Assembly (NCBI GenBank): GCA_018816445.1 | Contig: JAHIVO010000005.1 | Location: 1-63,783 of the forward strand | DNA from: Patescibacteria group bacterium | Lineage (GTDB): Bacteria > Patescibacteriota > Patescibacteriia > UBA10025 > JAHIVO01 | Reading direction: 5' to 3' | DNA: 63,783 nucleotides | Position numbers and translations under genes: made by a program | Part shown: positions 6,299 to 54,496 of the stretch, piece after piece | How positions within the stretch are numbered: position 1 is the first letter of the stretch | How the letters are laid out: each line of letters opens with the position of its first letter | The notes under the pieces: model-generated | The model's database searches: none | Told to the model about the DNA's origin: nothing | Seen by the model: the letters and a program-made list of their open reading frames with translations, nothing else

Positions 6299-6527
6299 TG
6301 ATTTTGATAATAAAGAGAAAGAATTTTAGAAGTAAGTATGTATGAGTTTTAATCTTAATTTATCTTTATGCCACAGGCCCGCCCGCCATTGCTTCGCGAG
6401 GCGAAGCGGGCGGGTAGAAATATGGAATTTGGTGATTGTTTTTTTCATAAGAGATTGATATTAACAATTGACAAGATTGAATTGGCGTGATAAGTTTTAT
6501 TGAAAACATTATTAATTGGAGGGATCA

Positions 6528-22743: not shown

Positions 22744-22756
22744 ATCTTTTTAACTA

Positions 22757-22893
22757 TTTTTTGGCGGGCCACTCGGGCCTGCCCGCCGTAGCCTTGGCGG
22801 AGGCGGGTTAAGTATCCAAGTTATATAAGTATTGTAAGGGTATTTCGATCATTTTTCCAGAAGGCGTTTTGGGGCACGTGGGTCGAGAGCCAC
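22757..22893 (-). repeat. repeat family copy A (promoter-like box plus GC-rich leader)
   Basis: Aligns with 25911..26045. Shared blocks are ttttggcgggccactc, ggcgg.aggcgggttaagta and atttttcc...ttttg.ggcacg.gggtcg. Read on the minus strand it contains TACAAT and TATATAA boxes and ends 14 nt before the lyase ATG. Confidence 0.7.
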
Positions 22894-23036
22894 TTTGATA
22901 TATATCTGATGAAGCTATTGTCTTTTTTTGTTATTAATAATTATTTATGTATTAACTTAATAGGTCACTAAGATTAGGATTATCATTACAATTACTAAGC
23001 CAATTGTTGCAAGGACTAATCTCTATGTTGCATTTT

Positions 23037-25655: not shown

Positions 25656-25910
25656 AAGTAAATTAATTCACGTAAAATTTATATAGTTTGCTTCTCTATC
25701 TGTCATTATTGATCCTATCAAGTGCCCGAGGGAATTACCAAATAACTTATTTCTATCCGAATATAGGCCATTCTGAGTCTATATATTAAATGGTATTGAA
25801 TTTCAGCAAATTACGCAAGAATTTATGTAGGATATTTTATGTAGGAGCAATTAATGTATAGCAAAACCTGAGCGATGTTAAGGCACTCAGGTTGGCTCCG
25901 ATACTAAGTT

Positions 25911-26045
25911 CTTTTGGCGGGCCACTCCCTCCTTCACTTACGTTTCGGCGGGCAGGCGGGTTAAGTACCCGGATTATACAAGTATTATAGGGCTTTCTGA
26001 TTATTTTTCCGGTGGTCATTTTGAGGCACGAGGGTCGGAGTTTGG
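25911..26045 (-). repeat. repeat family copy B
   Basis: See copy A. The minus strand contains TATAAT and TTGTATAAT. Confidence 0.7.
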
Positions 26046-26073
26046 TAATGTATGAAAGAATGGCTTGTTACTT

Positions 26074-27410: not shown

Positions 27411-27466
27411 AATTTTATTGTATTGTACTCCTCAAGATTCTTTTTTAAAATCGGTGGGGGAGGGAT

Positions 27467-27515
27467 TCGCCACGGGATAAACTAGGGGCGTCCCATTTAG
27501 TAACGGGGCGAGAGT
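27467..27515. repeat. 49-nt double-hairpin repeat, copy D1
   Basis: ttcgccacgggataaactaggggcgtcccatttagtaacggggcgagag. About 80% identical to D2. Confidence 0.7.
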
Positions 27516-27552
27516 CATTCATATTATTAAATGTATAAGTAGTCATCCAGAG

Positions 27553-27639
27553 CGGAGGAGAGAGGATTCGAACCTCTGATACCCTTGCGGGTATACAGCT
27601 TTTCGAGAGCTGCGCCTTCAACCACTCGGCCACTCCTCC
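27553..27639 (-). tRNA. tRNA-Ser (anticodon CGA)
   Basis: Hand-folded cloverleaf: acceptor GGAGGAG/CTCCTCC, anticodon loop CTCGAAA, long variable arm TACCC-GCAA-GGGTA, T-loop TTCGAAT. CCA is not encoded. Confidence 0.9.
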
Positions 27640-27649
27640 GCTCTGGGGA

Positions 27650-27913
27650 TTACTTTTGGATATCAAGTAATAAATCGCGGATTTGTTGTTTTAAGAACCT
27701 CCTGCCTTCGGTTGTTTTTAAATATTTTTCACGTCGCCGAGCGTCTGATTCTCTGGCGTAAACTTCATAATGAATCAACTTTAGGGGACGTCGATTTTTT
27801 GTAGATTCAACTTTACCATTTTTATGCTGTAAAAGCCTTTGGTTTAGTTTATCGGTAAATCCAGTATATAATTATTTGTTAGAGAGTAATAGTATATATA
27901 CGTAATTGTTCAT
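27650..27913 (-). pseudogene. GIY-YIG nuclease (UPF0213-like) with an in-frame TAA at codon 14
   Basis: Translation is MNNYVYILLLSNK*LYTGFTDKLNQRLLQHKNG...EKYLKTTEGRRFLK. This parallels the intact neighbour at 28012..28275. Confidence 0.65.
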
Positions 27914-27927
27914 AATATTGTATTGGT

Positions 27928-27978
27928 TTTCGCCCCGGGATAAACCCGGGGCGTCCCGTCGTATGACGGGACGAGAGC
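27928..27978. repeat. 49-nt double-hairpin repeat, copy D2
   Basis: ttcgccccgggataaacccggggcgtcccgtcgtatgacgggacgagag. Confidence 0.7.
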
Positions 27979-28007
27979 GGCCCGTTCAACCACTCCGGCA
28001 TCCTTCC
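27972..28007 (-). pseudogene. orphan 5' fragment of a class II (Ser-like) tRNA
   Basis: GGAAGGATGCCGGAGTGGTTGAACGGGCCGCTCTCG. This has an acceptor, a D-arm and an anticodon stem, and breaks off after CTCG of the loop. No matching 3' half is seen. Confidence 0.55.
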
Positions 28008-28011
28008 ATAA

Positions 28012-28275
28012 TTACTTTCCTATAGTTTCCATTGTATCAAATAACAAGAATTTTAGTCTTTCTCTTCCTTTGCCGCTCTTTAGAAACTTTTCTTCGGAAT
28101 ATGCATCTTTTTTTGTCAGAAAGGCTTCATAGTATATTAAGTTCCAATCTTTCGCTTTGGAGGTAAATTTTGACTTTCCTGATTTATGTTGCTCTAGGCG
28201 TCTATTAACATTATTTGTAAAACCAATATATTTTTTATTTAATTTTTTACTAAATATTATGTATATATAATACAT
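28012..28275 (-). CDS. GIY-YIG nuclease family protein (UPF0213-like)
   Basis: MYYIYII...YIGFTNNVNRRLEQHKSG...EEKFLKSGKGRERLK. Confidence 0.8.
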   Translation of the reverse strand: MYYIYIIFSKKLNKKYIGFTNNVNRRLEQHKSGKSKFTSKAKDWNLIYYEAFLTKKDAYSEEKFLKSGKGRERLKFLLFDTMETIGK

Positions 28276-28290
28276 CGATGTTTCTATTAT

Positions 28291-28345
28291 GGATCAACCA
28301 CTTCCGCCCTAGGCGGACCAGCCTTGGGCTGGCGGCCACTCCTCC
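28291..28345 (-). pseudogene. orphan 5' fragment of tRNA-Ser with two mini-hairpins inserted in the D-loop
   Basis: GGAGGAGTGGCCG is identical to tRNA-Ser positions 1-13. Next come CCAGCCcaagGCTGG and CCGCCtaggGCGG, then AGTGGTTGA, which matches tRNA-Ser positions 14-22. Confidence 0.6.
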
Positions 28346-44549: not shown

Positions 44550-44649
44550 AAAGGTAAGTTATTAATAATATTTATTTAATATTAGCATTTTTTTATTGTT
44601 TTTCCAAATTGAAAAACACCCTTCATGTAGAAAGGCGTTTTTCATATAA

Positions 44650-44764
44650 ACTGGCGATGGCCTACTTTCCCCACGGTTGCACCGTAGTATCATCAGCGCT
44701 GCCGGGCTTAACTGCTGAGTTCGGGATGGGATCAGGTGTGACCCCGGCGCTTAAATCACCAGAG
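44650..44764 (-). rRNA. rrf: 5S rRNA
   Basis: The reverse complement reads CTGGTGATTTAAGCGCCGGGGTCACACCTGATCCCATCCCGAACTCAGCAGTTAAGC...GGCCATCGCCAG, with terminal pairing CTGGTGAT/ATCGCCAG. Confidence 0.9.
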
Positions 44765-44931: not shown

Positions 44932-48122
<3,191 letters not shown>

Positions 48123-50807: not shown

Positions 50808-52022
50808 TTAGGTAGCCTGCTCGAGAATTAAGCCGGTCGCGCGTCCACCACCACCACAGGCAAAGACAATTGAGAACTGCTCACTGGACTGTTCTAGGAA
50901 GTAACAGCCTTCTTCGGCACGGCGGCCGCCGGACATACCGATGGCATGACCCAAGGCAATTGCACCACCATACCGGTTGACAATTGCCGGGTCAATATTC
51001 ATCCTTGTGGTGAAGTCATGAGCTTGGTTGCCGAACGCTTCGGTGCCTTGCCAGTCAGCGATATCGCTGGTGGTCAGTTTCTGCTTCTTTAGCAGGAATT
51101 CGACAACCTTAACCGGTGCGTCGAACAGTTCATCCGGTTCGGTGTATGCTGATTCTGTGGCTATGAGTTTCGCCATAACCTTCAATCCTCTTGAATCAGC
51201 AAAGTCTTTCAGCATCACGGCCTGTGCCATGGCAGCGTCGTTCTTACTTGAAACGTTGACGATAGTGGGATCACCGCCCTCACCCAAGTATGATTTCCAA
51301 CCGGTGATAAGTTCCGGCGTGACTTCCAGTTCAGACCAGTCTTTGTTCAGACGGGGGTAATCATGGTCAACGGTAAACGGTTCGAAACCGGGATCACCAT
51401 CAACTTTGATTACTCCTTCGACCGGGAAGATGAATCGTGAGGAAATTTCGGCACGATACCTGTAGGCGTTACCGAACGAGCGGGTCGCAACGGCGTCCAT
51501 GTCTGCGCGCGTGTAGCCATGTGTTTTACGGTGAGCTTCGGCTTTCTGCCACATCAGACCACCGTTGAAGCTGGTCAAGCCGATGATGTCTGAGAGGGGG
51601 ATCAGTTCCTTTTTGCCATAGAGTCCCTGATCCGGATTGGGCACCATATGGGTATTGGTCATGGATTCCGTGCCGACGATAATGATGCACTTAGCATCTT
51701 CGCGAGCTTGCAAGGTGTCTTTGGCATCCTCATATGCCTGAAGCGCAGAACAGCAGACCGTATTCACTACCTTTGATTTGGTCTTGGTTAGATCCCAGCC
51801 GGCTTCAGCAAGTACAGCGCGATCCAAGCCCTGACAGTCCGGCACGACCGTGGCGACGATGACCATATATACGTCATCTTGTGTCAGTCCGGTTCGTTTC
51901 ATCAGTTCCTTGAGTGCGAGCCCGCCCAATTTAGCGGCTCTCAAGTTCTTAAAGAAGCGGCCAACCGGTACAATTCCGGTGCTAACCGCGTCTCCGAGTA
52001 CGACAATTTTTGGGTCTGACAA
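50808..52022 (-). CDS. thiolase (acetyl-CoA C-acetyltransferase-like)
   Basis: VCCSALQA active-site Cys region, NRYGGAIALGHAIGMSGGR and ACGGGGRATGLILE. TTG start after the SD AAGGAGGG. Confidence 0.85.
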   Translation of the reverse strand: MSDPKIVVLGDAVSTGIVPVGRFFKNLRAAKLGGLALKELMKRTGLTQDDVYMVIVATVVPDCQGLDRAVLAEAGWDLTKTKSKVVNTVCCSALQAYEDAKDTLQAREDAKCIIIVGTESMTNTHMVPNPDQGLYGKKELIPLSDIIGLTSFNGGLMWQKAEAHRKTHGYTRADMDAVATRSFGNAYRYRAEISSRFIFPVEGVIKVDGDPGFEPFTVDHDYPRLNKDWSELEVTPELITGWKSYLGEGGDPTIVNVSSKNDAAMAQAVMLKDFADSRGLKVMAKLIATESAYTEPDELFDAPVKVVEFLLKKQKLTTSDIADWQGTEAFGNQAHDFTTRMNIDPAIVNRYGGAIALGHAIGMSGGRRAEEGCYFLEQSSEQFSIVFACGGGGRATGLILEQAT

Positions 52023-52250: not shown

Positions 52251-52922
52251 TTAGTTATCCAATCGCTTAAATGCGATTTTTATCGCATTAAGGTGACCTT
52301 TTAGTAAACTGCTCTTAAAGCACATTATACCTTTATTTGGAAACATATTATATGTAGCTTTTATTGTATTAAATGCTGTAACACAGGACCAATGCGCCAT
52401 TTCGTATGTATGGATTCTATTAAACCAAGGCATTAATTTTGCCTTGTTAGACAGACAGTTTTTTGGAAGATTTTTTGTTATTTTTTTATATTCCTTAAAC
52501 TCAATTTCGTTTGGTCTGTGATAAATATTTTTATCAGTTTTTTCATCTGATGTTATATGTACAATTGTATGTCTAAGTTTAATTAGCGTTTCTAGATCAG
52601 ATAAATTTTGGATTGGCTCATTTCGTTTTTTAAGTAAAGTAAATAGAAGTTTGTATTTTTTTAGTGTTCCAAGATTTAAAATATTGAATCCAATTTTATC
52701 AATATCTATTAGTTTTTGAGGAACGCCAATAGGGTATACTTTGCTTATATATTTTTTAAAAGTTATTCCTTTTCCTAATGCAGAGACTATAGTTTCATTA
52801 ATGAATGATTCTAGTGATACGATAGAAAGAATAATTGTCGTAATTGCGTTACTCGGTGATTTTTTTGATCGTTCGCAAGCGTCAATAGCTAGATGAAAAA
52901 TTTGTGGGGTATGTAGGTACAT
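52251..52922 (-). CDS. hypothetical protein with a possible HEPN-like Rx4H motif
   Basis: 223-aa AT-rich ORF with LIKLRHTIVH (R-x4-H) and an upstream SLESFINE helix. The assignment is weak. Confidence 0.4.
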   Translation of the reverse strand: MYLHTPQIFHLAIDACERSKKSPSNAITTIILSIVSLESFINETIVSALGKGITFKKYISKVYPIGVPQKLIDIDKIGFNILNLGTLKKYKLLFTLLKKRNEPIQNLSDLETLIKLRHTIVHITSDEKTDKNIYHRPNEIEFKEYKKITKNLPKNCLSNKAKLMPWFNRIHTYEMAHWSCVTAFNTIKATYNMFPNKGIMCFKSSLLKGHLNAIKIAFKRLDN

Positions 52923-52939
52923 AAAGGATTGTTAAAATG

Positions 52940-53035
52940 TGGTGCCGGGGAGAGCCCCGCTATCCCGTCATACGACGGGACAAGTTCAGCGGGATCTCCG
53001 CTTGCCCCGTAATACGGGGCTTCGCTCCGAGATTC
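52940..53035 (-). other. 3' arm of the outer tRNA-like inverted repeat (ends ...CCCCGGCACCA), containing two REP-like hairpins
   Basis: It pairs with 53344..53373 through GCCGGGG/CCCCGGC, GTCCCGC/GCGGGGC, TTCAG/CTGAA and CGAGATTC/GAATCTCG. It includes the hairpin tcccgtcatacgacggga, which is the D2 hairpin in inverted orientation. Confidence 0.5.
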
Positions 53036-53051
53036 TTATTAGTGTTTTTAA

Positions 53052-53099
53052 TGCCCAGGAGAGGAGTCGAACCTCCAAGGGATTGCCCCCACTAGGTCC
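53052..53099 (-). pseudogene. 3' half of a split tRNA-Leu
   Basis: GGA-CCTAG-TGGGGGCAATCCCTT-GGAGG-TTCGACT-CCTCT-CCTGGGC-A. This is complementary to the 5' half at 53283..53318. Confidence 0.6.
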
Positions 53100-53131
53100 C
53101 CCGCCTGCTGTGTCGGATGAGTTTATATGTT

Positions 53132-53218
53132 TGGTGCTGGAGGGGAGACTCGAACTCCCAAGCTCTTGCGAGCACTAGCTCCTAAGGCTAGCGCGTATAC
53201 CAATTCCGCCACTCCAGC
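53132..53218 (-). tRNA. tRNA-Leu (anticodon TAG), CCA encoded
   Basis: Hand-folded cloverleaf: GCTGGAG/CTCCAGC, loop CTTAGGA, variable arm GCTC-GCAA-GAGC, T-loop TTCGAGT, and ACCA. Confidence 0.9.
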
Positions 53219-53282
53219 ATAGTGTAGATTATTATAGGAAAGATTATTAGTATTTTTATAACGTGCACATTCGGCGGGCAGG

Positions 53283-53318
53283 TAAACCTAGCGCGTATAC
53301 CAATTCCGCCACCTGGGC
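53283..53318 (-). pseudogene. 5' half of the split tRNA-Leu
   Basis: GCCCAGG-TG-GCGGAATTGGTATACGC-G-CTAGG-TTTA. The D-arm is identical over 24 nt to that of the intact tRNA-Leu. Confidence 0.6.
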
Positions 53319-53343
53319 TTGAATATGTTATTTATAAATGGAT

Positions 53344-53373
53344 GAATCTCGCTGAATGGCGGGACACCCCGGC
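53344..53373 (-). other. 5' arm of the outer tRNA-like inverted repeat
   Basis: GCCGGGGTGTCCCGCCATTCAGCGAGATTC. Confidence 0.5.
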
Positions 53374-53421
53374 ACATAATTAATTCTACCTATTATATAT
53401 AATTGTAGCAAAAGATCAAGA

Positions 53422-53451
53422 TTGACAAAGCGCATGCATATTAGCTAAGAT
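53422..53451 (+). promoter_or_regulatory. prs promoter
   Basis: TTGACA, an 18-nt spacer, then TAAGAT. Confidence 0.5.
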
Positions 53452-53509
53452 TAATAACCATTTTGGCTTAATATGAAAAATAGTATATTGATAATAGAAG
53501 GAGGGTCCC

Positions 53510-54496
53510 ATGGACCTGAAGGTAATTGTAGGACCAGGATGTTCTAGCTCGTTAAGCGAAGGCATTCAGTCAAAGATTGCCGAGCTGACTAAGTCAGATT
53601 TTCAGTTAACTGTGTGCACAGAGACAGATTTTGCGGATGGAGCTGTACTTACTCAGATTGATGAGAATATTAGGGGAGCTGATGTATATATAGTACAATC
53701 AACTCCTCCGCCTGAGAGAAATTTCATGGTACTGCTTCAGATGCTACAGGCAGCTTCTTTGGCGTCGGCGGGTCGGGTAACAGCCGTGTTACCATATATT
53801 GATATTCGTCAGGACAGAAAAGATCGTCCGCGAGTACCAATAACCGCTGCCCTGCGCTTACAGGCGATTGAACAGGCTTTGATTGCAGCTTCGCATAAGC
53901 ATGTGATGTTTTTACATCCCCACTTTCCACAGGTGCAGGGGATGGTCCGTCTTTCTACTGATGTCTTGTACCCGACAAGTAGCTTCTTATTGGTAGCCAA
54001 TGATATAACTGGTAGTGATTTTTCGCAAGTCCTGCCTGTAGCACCGGATGTTGGTGCGGCAAAATTGGCTGCGCATTATCATCGCAGATTGGGTACGGGT
54101 TCATACGCTATCGGCGATAAGCGACGCAGTGATAATGACCAGGCGGAGATCAAAAGCATTATCGGGTGGATTGTTGGGCGAACGGCTTTTATCTACGATG
54201 ACATCATCGACACGGCCGGTTCTATCAAGGCTTTGGCTGCTAAACTTCGTGAGTTGGGTGTAGACAAGATATATGTCTTTGCCACGCACGGTATTCTGGC
54301 TGGTAAAGCCATTGCTAATCTGCAGTCTGCTGGTATTGAAAAGGTATTCATTACCGATTCAATCTCACATGATGGTGACAGCTTGCCTTCAGACCTGATT
54401 CAAATTGTGCCATGCGGTGAATTGCTCGGTGAAGCAATCTGGAGGAACAATACTAATAGGTCTATCCATGCTATTGACGGCATGTTTGATCGTTAA
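53510..54496 (+). CDS. prs: ribose-phosphate pyrophosphokinase
   Basis: RQDRKDRPRVPI, APDVGAAKLA and the PRPP-binding motif IYDDIIDTAGS. SD AAGGAGGG. Confidence 0.85.
   Translation: MDLKVIVGPGCSSSLSEGIQSKIAELTKSDFQLTVCTETDFADGAVLTQIDENIRGADVYIVQSTPPPERNFMVLLQMLQAASLASAGRVTAVLPYIDIRQDRKDRPRVPITAALRLQAIEQALIAASHKHVMFLHPHFPQVQGMVRLSTDVLYPTSSFLLVANDITGSDFSQVLPVAPDVGAAKLAAHYHRRLGTGSYAIGDKRRSDNDQAEIKSIIGWIVGRTAFIYDDIIDTAGSIKALAAKLRELGVDKIYVFATHGILAGKAIANLQSAGIEKVFITDSISHDGDSLPSDLIQIVPCGELLGEAIWRNNTNRSIHAIDGMFDR

Follow-up and report, generated by a model that had tools for sequence, protein, structure and literature searches.

The nested tRNA-Leu locus

On the minus strand of the window (the whole 63,783-nt stretch of DNA analysed here), next to prs, a thiolase gene and purD, lies a nest of tRNA-Leu(UAG) sequences in three layers, which we number 0 to 2 from the outside inwards. 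Read 5' to 3' on that strand, the features are as follows.

53392..53419, minus strand: promoter of the ancestral tRNA-Leu; -35 TTGATC at 53419..53414, -10 TATAAT at 53397..53392; 10/12 match to consensus
53365..53373, minus strand: layer 0, 5' relic of the oldest tRNA-Leu, GCCGGGGTG, nt 1-9; aligns with the intact tRNA-Leu of L019, the same locus in a relative
53319..53364, minus strand: layer-1 cassette, left arm; TCCCGCC hairpin arm, then AT-rich spacer (sequence reading)
53283..53318, minus strand: layer 1, 5' half of tRNA-Leu(UAG) no. 1, nt 1-36, ending TTTA within the anticodon (nhmmer, ARAGORN)
53273..53282, minus strand: left end of the 183-nt insert, CCTGCCCGCC, an imperfect terminal inverted repeat; pairs with the right end in the fold
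53219..53272, minus strand: left flank of the cargo, with TATAAT at 53236..53231 and a copy of the tRNA trailer, TAAAAATACTAATAA (sequence reading)
53132..53218, minus strand: layer 2, intact tRNA-Leu(UAG) no. 2, CCA encoded (ARAGORN; Rfam RF00005, 58.7 bits)
53100..53131, minus strand: right flank of the cargo, with the right end AGCAGGCGGG at 53109..53100 (sequence reading)
53052..53099, minus strand: layer 1, 3' half of tRNA-Leu(UAG) no. 1, nt 37-84, without CCA (nhmmer; ARAGORN on the joined sequence)
53025..53051, minus strand: trailer of tRNA no. 1, TTAAAAACACTAATAAGAATCTCGGAG; kept after the uninterrupted tRNA-Leu of L019
52955..53024, minus strand: GC-rich hairpin cluster, with hairpins at 53020..53004, 53002..52988 and 52981..52962 and the arm GCGGGG at 52960..52955 (fold)
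52940..52954, minus strand: layer 0, 3' relic of the oldest tRNA-Leu, CTCTCCCCGGCACCA: T-stem end, acceptor strand, A73 and CCA; identical 15-mer in L019

The innermost gene, a complete 87-nt tRNA-Leu(UAG) with an encoded CCA (53218..53132), was called by ARAGORN and scored 58.7 bits (E 4e-10) against the Rfam tRNA family RF00005, whose gathering threshold is 29 bits. The TATAAT that an earlier note on this DNA had placed ahead of the gene is found 12 nt upstream by sequence reading; no -35 box partnering it was matched in a consensus promoter scan. The same note had taken the flanking segments for the two halves of a second tRNA, a reading that held: when 53318..53283 (36 nt) and 53099..53052 (48 nt) are joined, ARAGORN calls an 84-nt tRNA-Leu(UAG) with every stem intact, and in nhmmer comparisons with a profile of relatives' tRNA-Leu the pieces match the exactly complementary positions 1-36 (E 3e-9) and 37-84 (E 2e-11). 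The insertion point falls between anticodon nucleotides 2 and 3 of tRNA no. 1, and the junction is precise, in that joining the halves restores an exact tRNA, without loss or duplication of any target base. As encoded, this outer tRNA was reported neither by the intron mode of ARAGORN on the uninterrupted locus nor by Rfam scans. tRNA no. 2 is the sole intact gene of the nest and presumably the only functional one. The two inserts measure 183 nt (layer 2) and about 410 nt, and no ORF fits either.

Outside these layers, segments that pair with one another had been interpreted as a separate bracket resembling an acceptor stem followed by ACCA. The complementarity itself is seen in the fold, whereas the separate bracket gives way to the relic of a third tRNA-Leu. 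Alignments A2 and A3 show that its ends, GCCGGGGTG (53373..53365) and CTCTCCCCGGCACCA (52954..52940), share homology with the 5' and 3' termini of tRNA-Leu at this locus in relatives, and the 5' relic stands at the same distance from the promoter as nt 1-9 of the intact tRNA-Leu in L019. The promoter block ahead of the tRNA-Leu 5' end is common to six loci of relatives (alignment A2). We also considered the outermost layer as a tRNA or tmRNA in its own right; nothing was called by ARAGORN on the joined outer layer, and it was reread as relics and hairpins.

A second assembly, GCA_018813575.1, reproduces the locus and is identical across the nest, with one mismatch in 6352 nt (at 50813); both it and an ENA k141 contig are identical to the window at all nest junctions. 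The nested locus, an intact tRNA-Leu(UAG) within a split tRNA-Leu(UAG), is real, as the earlier note had proposed. The D-arms of the two tRNAs do share an identical 25-nt block (53188-53212 and 53288-53312), a repeat from which an assembly artefact might arise, and a Logan contig of the same sequence stops at 53158, inside the inner tRNA. This break does not lie at a junction, however, and other species, assembled independently, show analogous nests at L101 and at L025 and L026, the last two being assemblies of a single species. Misassembly of the nest is unlikely, and an artefact of the 25-nt repeat in particular is extremely improbable.

Insert ends, hairpins and fold

The 183-nt insert (53282..53100) is closed by a CCCGCC/GGCGGG stem in the minimum-energy fold, as first seen by eye, and the fold of the 451-nt region has a z of -6.1 versus shuffles. 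Its ends are imperfect inverted repeats of 10 nt, in which 8-9 of 10 positions pair when CCTGCCCGCC is set against the reverse complement of the right end, CCCGCCTGC(C/T). No target-site duplication was found at the window nest or in L025. The GC-rich flank of the insert, described earlier as repeated elsewhere, recurs as TTCGGCGGGCAGG, exact at 25944-25956; with up to two mismatches there are 6 sites in the 64-kb window, where 0.73 are expected. Neither a repeat search nor a paired end-motif search revealed a second whole cassette in the window, in which only the 13-nt end motif recurs.

From the 3' cluster, the hairpin TCCCGTC-GTAT-GACGGGA is found again at 27953-27971, and hairpins of this type adjoin 3' tRNA relics in L058 and L100 too. 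Hairpins of the CCCGCC type occur elsewhere in the genome, for example in terminator-like and leader positions (6369-6421, 22758-22814), and may be generic rather than specific to the element. When the locus and the whole window were scanned, at gathering as well as permissive thresholds, with Rfam models of group I and II introns, tmRNA, RNase P, SRP and Y-RNA-like families, the inner tRNA alone scored. Intron_gpI gave no match in 52600-53700 at E up to 10 or in the whole window at E up to 1, and weak matches to Corona_FSE, YrlA and c-di-AMP fell far under threshold.

The same locus in relatives

We compared the nest with loci of relatives that lie upstream of prs behind the same promoter. 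The earlier note had suggested looking there for an uninterrupted tRNA-Leu of the outer type, and L019 has one: its single tRNA-Leu shares variable arm and trailer with tRNA no. 1, and a hairpin and then CTCTCCCCGGCACCA come after it. The tRNA 3' end CTCTCCCCGGCA(CCA) forms a direct repeat in L019, and a 3' relic is present in the window. The insert varies in presence and absence, L019 being uninterrupted and the window interrupted.

Other relatives carry different occupants at the locus. In L025/L026 the intact inner cargo (Rfam 57 bits) is the GCCCAGG allele, which shares 87% identity with the outer tRNA of the window. This cargo interrupts the D-loop of a decayed tRNA-Leu, with CCTGCCCGCC and GGCAGGCGGG at the two junctions, and the pieces of the decayed gene align to positions 1-28 and 24-84 of the profile. 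The left end motif CCTGCCCGCC also occurs in L015, beside decayed fragments; the insertion points in the window, L025 and L015 differ, and the end motifs are conserved. In L021 a 5' tRNA-Leu stub and hairpins are followed by a GIY-YIG ORF of 85 aa and a tRNA-Leu, both intact. The prs protein of L027 is 86% identical to that of L021 and the flanks are homologous, while the interior is completely different: L027 holds two relics from different alleles, its outer pieces are no longer complementary, and it has the 9-nt 5' stub design of the window, with CCCCGCC-ATAC-GGCGGG at that junction and an analogous 3' relic. A prs-protein scan of species-representative genomes returned only distant relatives (at most 42% identity) with no useful synteny, and in L128 (73% identity) and L129 (50%) there is no tRNA upstream of prs.

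Of the two explanations put forward in the earlier note, serial insertion of tRNA-carrying cassettes is supported by the empty locus in L019 and by the cargo allele between the same end motifs in L025/L026. It gains further support from outer pieces that are decayed or mismatched in the older events and from complete relatives of the cassette that carry a GIY-YIG gene. The other explanation, a functional multi-tRNA precursor in which an intron-like insert is processed and both inner and outer tRNA mature, is not supported. Although one strong promoter precedes the whole locus, the nested helices of the fold bring the outer halves together and those halves are undamaged, no group I or II intron or other Rfam match appeared even at E up to 10, and 183 nt that include an 87-nt tRNA are too short to hold a ribozyme as well. 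Judged by inspection, the junction consists of a helix and an asymmetric loop, 8 nt unpaired on the 5' side and 3 on the 3' side, with no 4-bp central helix between 3-nt bulges, so that a bulge-helix-bulge motif was rejected. The outer pieces, moreover, are decayed or non-complementary in L025, L015 and L027, and to our knowledge no protein-based tRNA splicing exists in bacteria. A spliced precursor is very unlikely.

Local rearrangement without any mobile element would have tandem tRNA-Leu copies shuffled by hairpin-mediated recombination, slippage and gene conversion until one came to nest in the other by chance. Hairpins are recombinogenic, the D-arms share their 25-nt block, and the left flank of the insert contains a trailer-like 15-nt repeat (D4) that is 93% identical to 53036-53050. 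Such shuffling nevertheless accords poorly with two tRNAs that are 73% identical to one another, each nearer to alleles of other lineages, and with an interruption exact to the nucleotide. Nor would it account for the same end motifs around different cargo at a different site in L025, or for the same architecture at tRNA-Ser genes in unrelated contigs, and we regard it as decidedly improbable.

GIY-YIG genes beside nested tRNA genes

Nesting extends to tRNA-Ser. The window's own tRNA-Ser locus is likewise three-layered and contains a GIY-YIG gene that is intact and another that is frameshifted. In L101 an intact tRNA-Ser lies within another, and with the inner tRNA and the hairpins cut out of the sequence the outer one is called again as tRNA-Ser(UGA). 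L061 and L072 share the order 5' relic, hairpins, ORF, tRNA, hairpins, 3' relic. Joining the 5' half of the window's outer tRNA-Ser to its putative 3' relic gave no callable tRNA, and neither did joining the pieces of L033; these relics are incomplete or come from different alleles. The serine-tRNA profile search finds only long relics (at least 34 nt) and therefore undercounts them.

JGI metagenomes yielded 536 confirmed GIY-YIG homologues, the best 80 of which were analysed. A tRNA on the same strand starts within 150 nt of the GIY-YIG gene, directly downstream, in 71 of 75 of these census loci. In 51 of the 69 testable loci, the nuclease gene is preceded by a 5' copy of that tRNA with the double hairpin directly after it (the score of the reverse-complement control never exceeded 7). 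The association of nuclease, hairpin, tRNA and relic holds family-wide. Break points cluster at nt 8-9, 12-17 and 20-25 and within the anticodon, and 3' relics starting in the T-loop lie behind the hairpins at 13 sites in 12 loci. As census loci were picked via the nuclease, the census is silent on the frequency of cassettes that have no ORF. The double hairpin covaries: in alignment A4, whose sequences were picked as ungapped 30-mers, so that selection favours pairing, 99% of cells are paired, 7/12 pairs are changed on both sides, and 58 cells are changed on both sides as against 15.5 in shuffles, a value reached in 0/500 of them. When viral contigs were scanned for the double hairpin and the end motifs, all matches were chance ones, in phage contigs rich in GC and away from any tRNA.

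The protein (79-90 aa, and 87 aa in the copy encoded at 28275..28012 of the window) matches Pfam GIY-YIG (PF01541) at 3e-17, and the catalytic residues Y5, Y16, G18, R26, H30 and E62 are invariant in 17 homologues. It consists of the catalytic domain only, with no separate DNA-binding domain; the NCBIfam model grpIintron_endo covers residues 4-37 only, at 19 bits against a cut-off of 56, and the nearest solved structures are those of UPF0213 proteins and SLX1.

A GIY-YIG ORF is present in L021 (the same locus), in the window's tRNA-Ser locus and in the 80 census loci, and tblastn found no nuclease ORF or remnant in the Leu nest. Since the nest has no ORF, what ties it to the GIY-YIG modules is family resemblance, L021 and a shared hairpin vocabulary. 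The designs differ in that Leu nests hold their cargo between the two arms of one stem, whereas complete double hairpins flank or precede the ORF in ORF-bearing modules; how one design relates to the other is a guess on our part.

The ORF-less Leu cassettes might instead be miniature transposons, mobilised by some transposase or recombinase that works on the inverted repeats or hairpins at their ends (e.g. a hairpin-recognising enzyme of the IS200/IS605 or IS110 type), the GIY-YIG genes beside tRNAs being a separate phenomenon. Conservation of the 10-nt inverted ends at different insertion points in the window, L025 and L015, precise insertion with no target bases lost and the absence of a nuclease ORF from the cassette would all fit. 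Against this stand the lack of a target-site duplication, the lack of a transposase gene adjoining any locus examined and the finding that whole-element copies are not dispersed in the window; the hairpin arms also share their design with GIY-YIG modules, and L021 carries a GIY-YIG ORF at the very locus. This alternative is unlikely.

Interpretation and proposed mechanism

We conclude that the locus is probably (at a probability of roughly 0.7) a three-layer tRNA-Leu(UAG) stack, built up as one tRNA gene was invaded time after time by small cassettes, bounded by hairpins and supplied with a replacement tRNA. The original gene behind the conserved promoter would be layer 0, of which the first 9 and the last 15 nt (with CCA) are left. 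Layer 1 would be a cassette that brought tRNA no. 1 and its trailer, and layer 2 the 183-nt cassette, with the ends CCTGCCCGCC and AGCAGGCGGG, that brought tRNA no. 2 with its CCA into tRNA no. 1. The outer pieces would then be relics, those of tRNA no. 1 probably too young for decay.

We place the cassettes in a family found widely across Patescibacteria, the Leu cassettes here being members without an ORF. Complete members are made up of a conserved GC hairpin pair, a gene for a GIY-YIG protein of about 85 aa in a single domain and a tRNA directly downstream. Which agent cuts, where, and how repair runs we infer as follows. The predicted nuclease, probably guided by DNA structure, would cut a tRNA gene where it encodes a loop, and the break would be repaired by copying another copy of the element, with the tRNA sequence and the hairpins serving as homology. 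Since what is copied includes either the entire tRNA or its 5' portion, the gene would be made intact again and the invasion tolerated; because the re-created gene can be invaded again, nests would form. Against this model, the catalytic domain of about 85 aa, a predicted nuclease, has no obvious means of sequence-specific targeting, and the inner tRNA often equals the relic sequence at the break point, which makes its escape from cleavage hard to explain.

More tentatively, at somewhat less than even odds, we suggest that these loci represent a large, undescribed Patescibacteria class of self-complementing selfish elements. Each would pair a covarying double hairpin with a minimal GIY-YIG nuclease of about 85 aa, probably structure-recognising, and would bring a complete tRNA, or the 5' part of one, as replacement. 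They would invade tRNA genes at loop-coding positions and nest by re-invasion; their hairpin arms would serve as transferable sites of recombination by which ORF-less tRNA cassettes are moved too, so that tRNA alleles are reshuffled among lineages. Such elements would be intron-like at the DNA level and need no splicing, because a spare gene is supplied.

If this is true, a selfish element lives in the single-copy tRNA genes of reduced Patescibacteria genomes and avoids being selected against because it supplies a functional copy of the gene that it disrupts. This would be a third route into an essential RNA gene, next to self-splicing introns and to integrases by which the 3' end is restored. 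It would offer a route for horizontal replacement of tRNA alleles and account for the tRNA fragments and pseudo-tRNAs that confuse the annotation of Patescibacteria genomes. The nests would be a readable record of successive invasions, the very common and uncharacterised GIY-YIG proteins of about 85 aa (UPF0213-like) would gain a testable role, and the covarying double hairpin would be a defined small structure open to functional testing.

Relation to known systems

The literature that we searched, whose coverage is incomplete and leaves novelty unproven, held no account of GIY-YIG/tRNA modules or of nested bacterial tRNA genes. Several known systems resemble them in part. In phage T4, a break made by the nuclease SegB within a tRNA gene cluster leads to non-reciprocal copying of the nuclease gene and neighbouring tRNA sequence (PMC2330249; PMC13096335), and the likeness to such free-standing GIY-YIG homing endonucleases lies in a nuclease gene beside tRNA genes. 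The T4 Seg proteins are larger, however, and have DNA-binding regions, whereas the Patescibacteria protein is a catalytic domain of about 85 aa with predicted activity; no nested relics, double hairpins or interruption of a tRNA body are described in T4, and the genomes here are those of cellular Patescibacteria.

Phages and ICEs that target tRNA genes, with attP within the tRNA 3' end, likewise restore the gene with their own copy and leave the displaced fragment as a direct repeat, with which the 3' relics here may be compared, as with the classes of fragment treated in PMC9897764. Those elements are kilobases long, encode a tyrosine or serine integrase and replace only the 3' part, whereas the present cassettes measure 120-600 nt, have no integrase, supply 5' parts or whole tRNAs and can let both target halves persist. 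Of the marks of an integrase-type tRNA-targeting element, no integrase gene was found within the inserts, and the direct repeat of the tRNA 3' end was found.

Paquin, Laforest and Lang reportedly described in 1994 a nuclease ORF in Allomyces atp6 that arrives with part of the host gene and turns the old part into a pseudogene. The double-hairpin elements (DHEs) of fungal mitochondria are characterised as short, GC-rich, mobile elements of two hairpins that insert in structured regions (Paquin et al. 2000, as cited in PMC3787672). The parallel would be one of analogy: those cases concern organelle genomes and, for atp6, a protein-coding target, whereas here the target is a tRNA and the hairpins lie exactly at the relic junction.

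Group I introns of bacterial tRNA also insert within the anticodon loop of tRNA-Leu. Unlike them, the cassette has no ribozyme core and carries a tRNA gene, and for that reason the interruption is solved at the DNA level by a spare copy rather than by RNA splicing. Disrupted archaeal tRNA genes, among them split tRNAs and genes with introns at non-canonical sites, are broken at the D-loop, anticodon and T-loop, with mobile DNA proposed as the cause, as in the mobile-element model for Caldiarchaeum (PMC3293823); there, bulge-helix-bulge splicing gives one mature tRNA, whereas the bacterial nest has no such motif and contains a complete second tRNA. The rRNA genes of CPR bacteria harbour nuclease-bearing or ORF-less insertions, including non-intron ones that encode GIY-YIG proteins (PMC11270868). 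These come from the same bacterial group and invade essential RNA genes too, in a study that treats rRNA and does not mention tRNA; they are excised or tolerated within the RNA, whereas the cassettes here supply a replacement gene.

Architecture of the nested tRNA-Leu locus

The minus-strand locus at 52940-53373, referred to here as the Leu nest, contains an intact tRNA-Leu(UAG) (tRNA no. 2) within broken tRNA-Leu genes, including the outer, interrupted tRNA no. 1.

Elements of the Leu nest and its promoter, in the direction of transcription
53419..53414 (-35) and 53397..53392 (-10), minus: conserved ancestral promoter, 10 of 12 consensus positions matching
53373..53365, minus: GCCGGGGTG, 3' of the promoter, read from the sequence
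directly after GCCGGGGTG, minus: 46-nt segment beginning TCCCGCC, read from the sequence
53318..53283, minus: 36-nt 5' half of a class II tRNA (tRNA no. 1), last loop bases TTTA, read from the sequence
53282..53100, minus: 183-nt insert between the halves of tRNA no. 1
53218..53132, minus: tRNA-Leu(UAG) no. 2, complete, 87 nt, with CCA (ARAGORN; Rfam 58.7 bits)
53099..53052, minus: matching 48-nt 3' half of tRNA no. 1, beginning GGA, without CCA
between 53052 and 52954, minus: trailer, then a GC hairpin cluster, read from the sequence
52954..52940, minus: CTCTCCCCGGCACCA, last element of the nest

The inner gene, which the earlier note had recognized together with a TATAAT box 12 nt upstream, is called by both ARAGORN and Rfam, and the box falls within the 183-nt insert. 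The flanking segments had been taken for halves of a second class II tRNA with a UAG anticodon, and this is borne out. When 53318..53283 and 53099..53052 are joined, ARAGORN identifies an 84-nt tRNA-Leu(UAG) with all stems intact, and a profile of relatives' tRNA-Leu genes aligns with the 5' half over positions 1-36 (E 3e-9) and with the 3' half over 37-84 (E 2e-11). tRNA no. 1 was therefore broken in the anticodon, after base 2. The two tRNAs are only 73% identical, each being nearer to alleles of other lineages.

Encoded CCA is frequent on displaced 3' relics and lacking in the incoming intact tRNA of the same locus (window tRNA no. 1, with the pattern at 52940-52954 and 53052; relative L019, 4395-4409; metagenome locus L061, 1923-1942). 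The innermost window tRNA encodes CCA. This difference between relic and cargo suggests alleles from donors with differing 3'-end conventions.

An assembly artefact is excluded for practical purposes, as independent assemblies contradict it. The window is a portion of ENA contig k141_414408, and GCA_018813575.1 reproduces the sequence through every Leu nest junction; over 6352 nt it shows a single mismatch, at 50813. A Logan contig begins at 53158, within the inner tRNA rather than at a junction, and other organisms, assembled independently, have analogous nests.

The same locus in relatives

The Leu nest is surrounded by bacterial genes (prs, thiolase, purD, a Cys/Met PLP enzyme and an M23 peptidase), and we used prs homologues to fetch the contigs of relatives. 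The closest named homologues belong to Patescibacteria group and Kerfeldbacteria, and no species-representative genome encodes a prs protein more than 42% identical to that of the window. In the loci compared below, the 5' end of a tRNA-Leu always comes after the promoter block (alignment A2). In a further relative, L024, two tandem prs genes occupy 206-2280, and only 205 nt of contig precede the first.

The uninterrupted tRNA-Leu sought in related genomes is present in L019 (prs 65% identical), where a single tRNA-Leu(UAG), which shares its variable arm and trailer with window tRNA no. 1, is followed by a hairpin and then by the same 15-mer, CTCTCCCCGGCACCA. The 451-nt Leu nest region does adopt the nested-helix fold proposed from sequence alone (z = -6.1 against shuffles); its outermost helix, however, is made of both ends of an older tRNA-Leu copy, as the L019 layout shows. 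In L015 (prs 75%), the left end of the window's 183-nt insert recurs (CCTGCCCGCCGAACGTGC) and adjoins the remains of a D-arm; an anticodon arm, likewise decayed, lies downstream.

Contigs L025 and L026 (prs 55%) possess an intact tRNA-Leu of the GCCCAGG allele, 87% identical to the outer tRNA of the window (Rfam 57 bits). Flanked by CCTGCCCGCC and GGCAGGCGGG, it interrupts the D-loop of another tRNA-Leu, now decayed, the pieces of which align with positions 1-28 and 24-84 of the profile, so that the end motifs of the window bracket different cargo at a different position. The victim tRNA of the window is the invader in L025/L026.

In L021 (prs 55%), two GC hairpins interrupt the 5' tRNA-Leu stub behind the promoter; after it come a GIY-YIG ORF of 85 aa and a tRNA-Leu with CCA, both intact. 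L027 is close to L021 in its prs protein (86% identical) and flanks (76-83%), yet its interior is entirely different. That interior begins with a stub, 9 nt long, of the allele that L021 has intact, followed by a CCCCGCC-ATAC-GGCGGG hairpin and an intact third allele; after these come hairpins and the 3' relic of the allele that L021 retains as a 5' stub. The two relics are not complementary, and are therefore leftovers rather than a functional helix. The spliced multi-tRNA precursor offered as one explanation in the earlier note is very improbable, since the outer pieces are decayed in relatives and the locus has no ribozyme or bulge-helix-bulge motif. Its other explanation, serial insertion of a tRNA-carrying cassette, gains support from the comparison with relatives' loci.

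Collectively, the Leu nest is a stack of three tRNA-Leu generations. Cassette ends recur with other cargo at other sites, and close relatives differ in the presence, absence and content of cassettes. Old tRNA relics decay.

A family of GIY-YIG-associated elements

The other tRNA of the window, Ser(CGA) at 27639..27552, lies in a three-layer nest like the Leu nest, at 27448-28345 on the minus strand.

Elements of the tRNA-Ser nest
28345..28334, minus: 12-nt stub
28332..28303, minus: canonical double hairpin, after the stub
28275..28012, minus: GIY-YIG gene, intact, 87 aa
28007..27972, minus: 36-nt 5' half of a different tRNA-Ser allele, ending after anticodon base 2, with two hairpins next
27901..27656, minus: GIY-YIG gene, frameshifted
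27639..27552, minus: tRNA-Ser(CGA), intact
about 27514..27448, minus: CTCTCG, two hairpins and GAATCCCTCCCCCACCG, 3' of tRNA-Ser(CGA); the GAATCCCTCCCCCACCG end resembles a 3' relic

A search of the protein collection with the GIY-YIG protein gives 246 homologues at E ≤ 1e-5, and all 13 names displayed among the 120 listed are Patescibacteria lineages. All three loci that we looked up comprise a stub, two hairpins, the ORF and a tRNA-Ser, in that order. A scan of JGI metagenomes confirmed 536 relatives, the best 80 of which were analysed. Among these, 75 ORFs had sufficient sequence on their downstream side, and for 71 of the 75 a same-strand tRNA starts within 150 nt (Ser 62, Asp 4, Tyr 2, Cys 2 and Thr 1). 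The linked tRNA-Ser genes (62/71; L033-L112) include all four isoacceptors, and the linked tRNA in L021 is Leu.

The first 8-36 nt of the linked tRNA are copied upstream of the ORF, with a hairpin pair directly after, in 51/69 testable loci; relic scores are at least 10 in 45 loci, against a maximum of 7 in the reverse-complement control. Breaks fall at nt 8-9 (7 loci), 12-17 (32), 20-25 (6) or inside the anticodon (6). Downstream, 12 loci contain 13 3' relics that start in the T-loop and frequently have CCA at their end; hairpins precede them, one type being that at 52981..52962 in the Leu nest. The canonical pair has two 6-bp stems with 3-nt loops, kept by compensatory changes: 99% of cells are paired and 58 show two-sided changes, compared with 15.5 in shuffles (0/500 reach 58), with the caveat that the set was restricted by choice to ungapped 30-mers, which favours pairing.

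Full tRNA-Ser nests (5' relic, hairpins, ORF, intact tRNA, hairpins, 3' relic) occur in L061 and L072. In L101, an intact tRNA-Ser lies within a second one, which is again called tRNA-Ser(UGA) once the inner gene and one hairpin pair are removed. Two modules stand in tandem at several loci (L101, L103, L088 and L098). A mirror-image module at L037 (66-502) runs from an intact tRNA-Tyr through a GIY-YIG ORF to the 3' portion (nt 34-84) of the same tRNA, which has a double hairpin inserted in its T-loop; elements replacing the 3' side thus exist as well.

Local rearrangement of duplicated tRNAs is an improbable source of the Leu nest, as it leaves unexplained both this family-wide pattern and the fact that another lineage has identical ends around a different cargo. 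For the ORF-less cassettes, mobilization by a transposase that recognizes their inverted ends is somewhat easier to entertain, though still unlikely: the target is not duplicated, the loci examined have no transposase gene beside them, and the window has no second whole copy.

A proposed model of target-restoring homing

The GIY-YIG protein encoded by complete family members (Pfam match 3e-17) has catalytic residues that do not vary among 17 homologues. It consists of the catalytic domain only, and its nearest solved structures are UPF0213 proteins and the structure-specific nuclease SLX1; these features favour recognition of structure over sequence. The putative nuclease would cut tRNA genes at loop-coding positions, its target probably being an extruded or single-stranded tRNA-gene structure. 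Repair of the break would copy the element from another copy, with tRNA sequence and hairpins as homology. The copied DNA would bring a whole tRNA or the missing 5' part, restoring a working gene and making the event tolerable to the host. The restored gene would be a target again, hence multiple layers. The Leu nest cargo is placed between the two arms of one CCCGCC/GGCGGG-type stem; it may have entered a hairpin loop, or the hairpins may be collapsed empty cassettes, and we prefer neither.

Nuclease genes decay also, as seen from the frameshifted copy and the ORF-less cassettes, which fit the usual life cycle of homing-endonuclease genes. We provisionally file the Leu nest, which holds no nuclease ORF inside where the GIY-YIG homing class has one, as homing-type selfish DNA that would restore its target.

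Among the nearest systems, fungal mitochondrial endonuclease ORFs bring a replacement gene end, and group I introns occupy tRNA anticodon loops. T4 SegB, a homing endonuclease of the GIY-YIG type, resides in a tRNA cluster (PMC2330249; PMC13096335), integrase-type elements leave fragments behind and rebuild the tRNA in which they land (PMC9897764), mobile double-hairpin elements occur in fungal mitochondrial genomes (according to work cited in PMC3787672), and archaea have disrupted tRNAs (PMC3293823). Nuclease-bearing insertions are described in CPR rRNA genes, with no mention of tRNA (PMC11270868). In none of these systems does a minimal GIY-YIG protein occur together with a replacement tRNA, a pair of covarying hairpins and nested relics on a bacterial chromosome. 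The literature searched, incomplete in coverage, gave no description of the GIY-YIG/hairpin/tRNA nest combination. The Leu nest exemplifies an element family that is widespread in Patescibacteria and, apparently, undescribed.

Other features of the window

The 23S rRNA gene (44935-48116, minus) measures 3182 nt, whereas the model has 2925 nt; its 5' domain carries several insertions of ~50-90 nt. A 5S gene follows (44649-44763, minus), and the window contains no 16S gene, so that the 23S is not linked to one. Such insertions and unlinked 23S genes are common in the Patescibacteria group.

A ~160-nt repeat on the minus strand (22744-22915 and 25880-26065, 78% identical) precedes two transcription units, a beta-eliminating lyase gene and an ABC transporter operon whose binding protein is NMT1/THI5-like. 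It has a promoter-like TATAAT and a GC-rich leader that contains the CCTGCCCGCC motif and differs at its centre between the copies. The repeat matches no Rfam family and may be a shared regulatory leader. Lastly, a GC-rich nested hairpin at 6369-6421 (CCCGCCCGCC...GGGCGGG) shares the CCCGCC vocabulary in an AT-rich intergenic region with no tRNA near; a terminator is one possible reading, a further small hairpin element the other.
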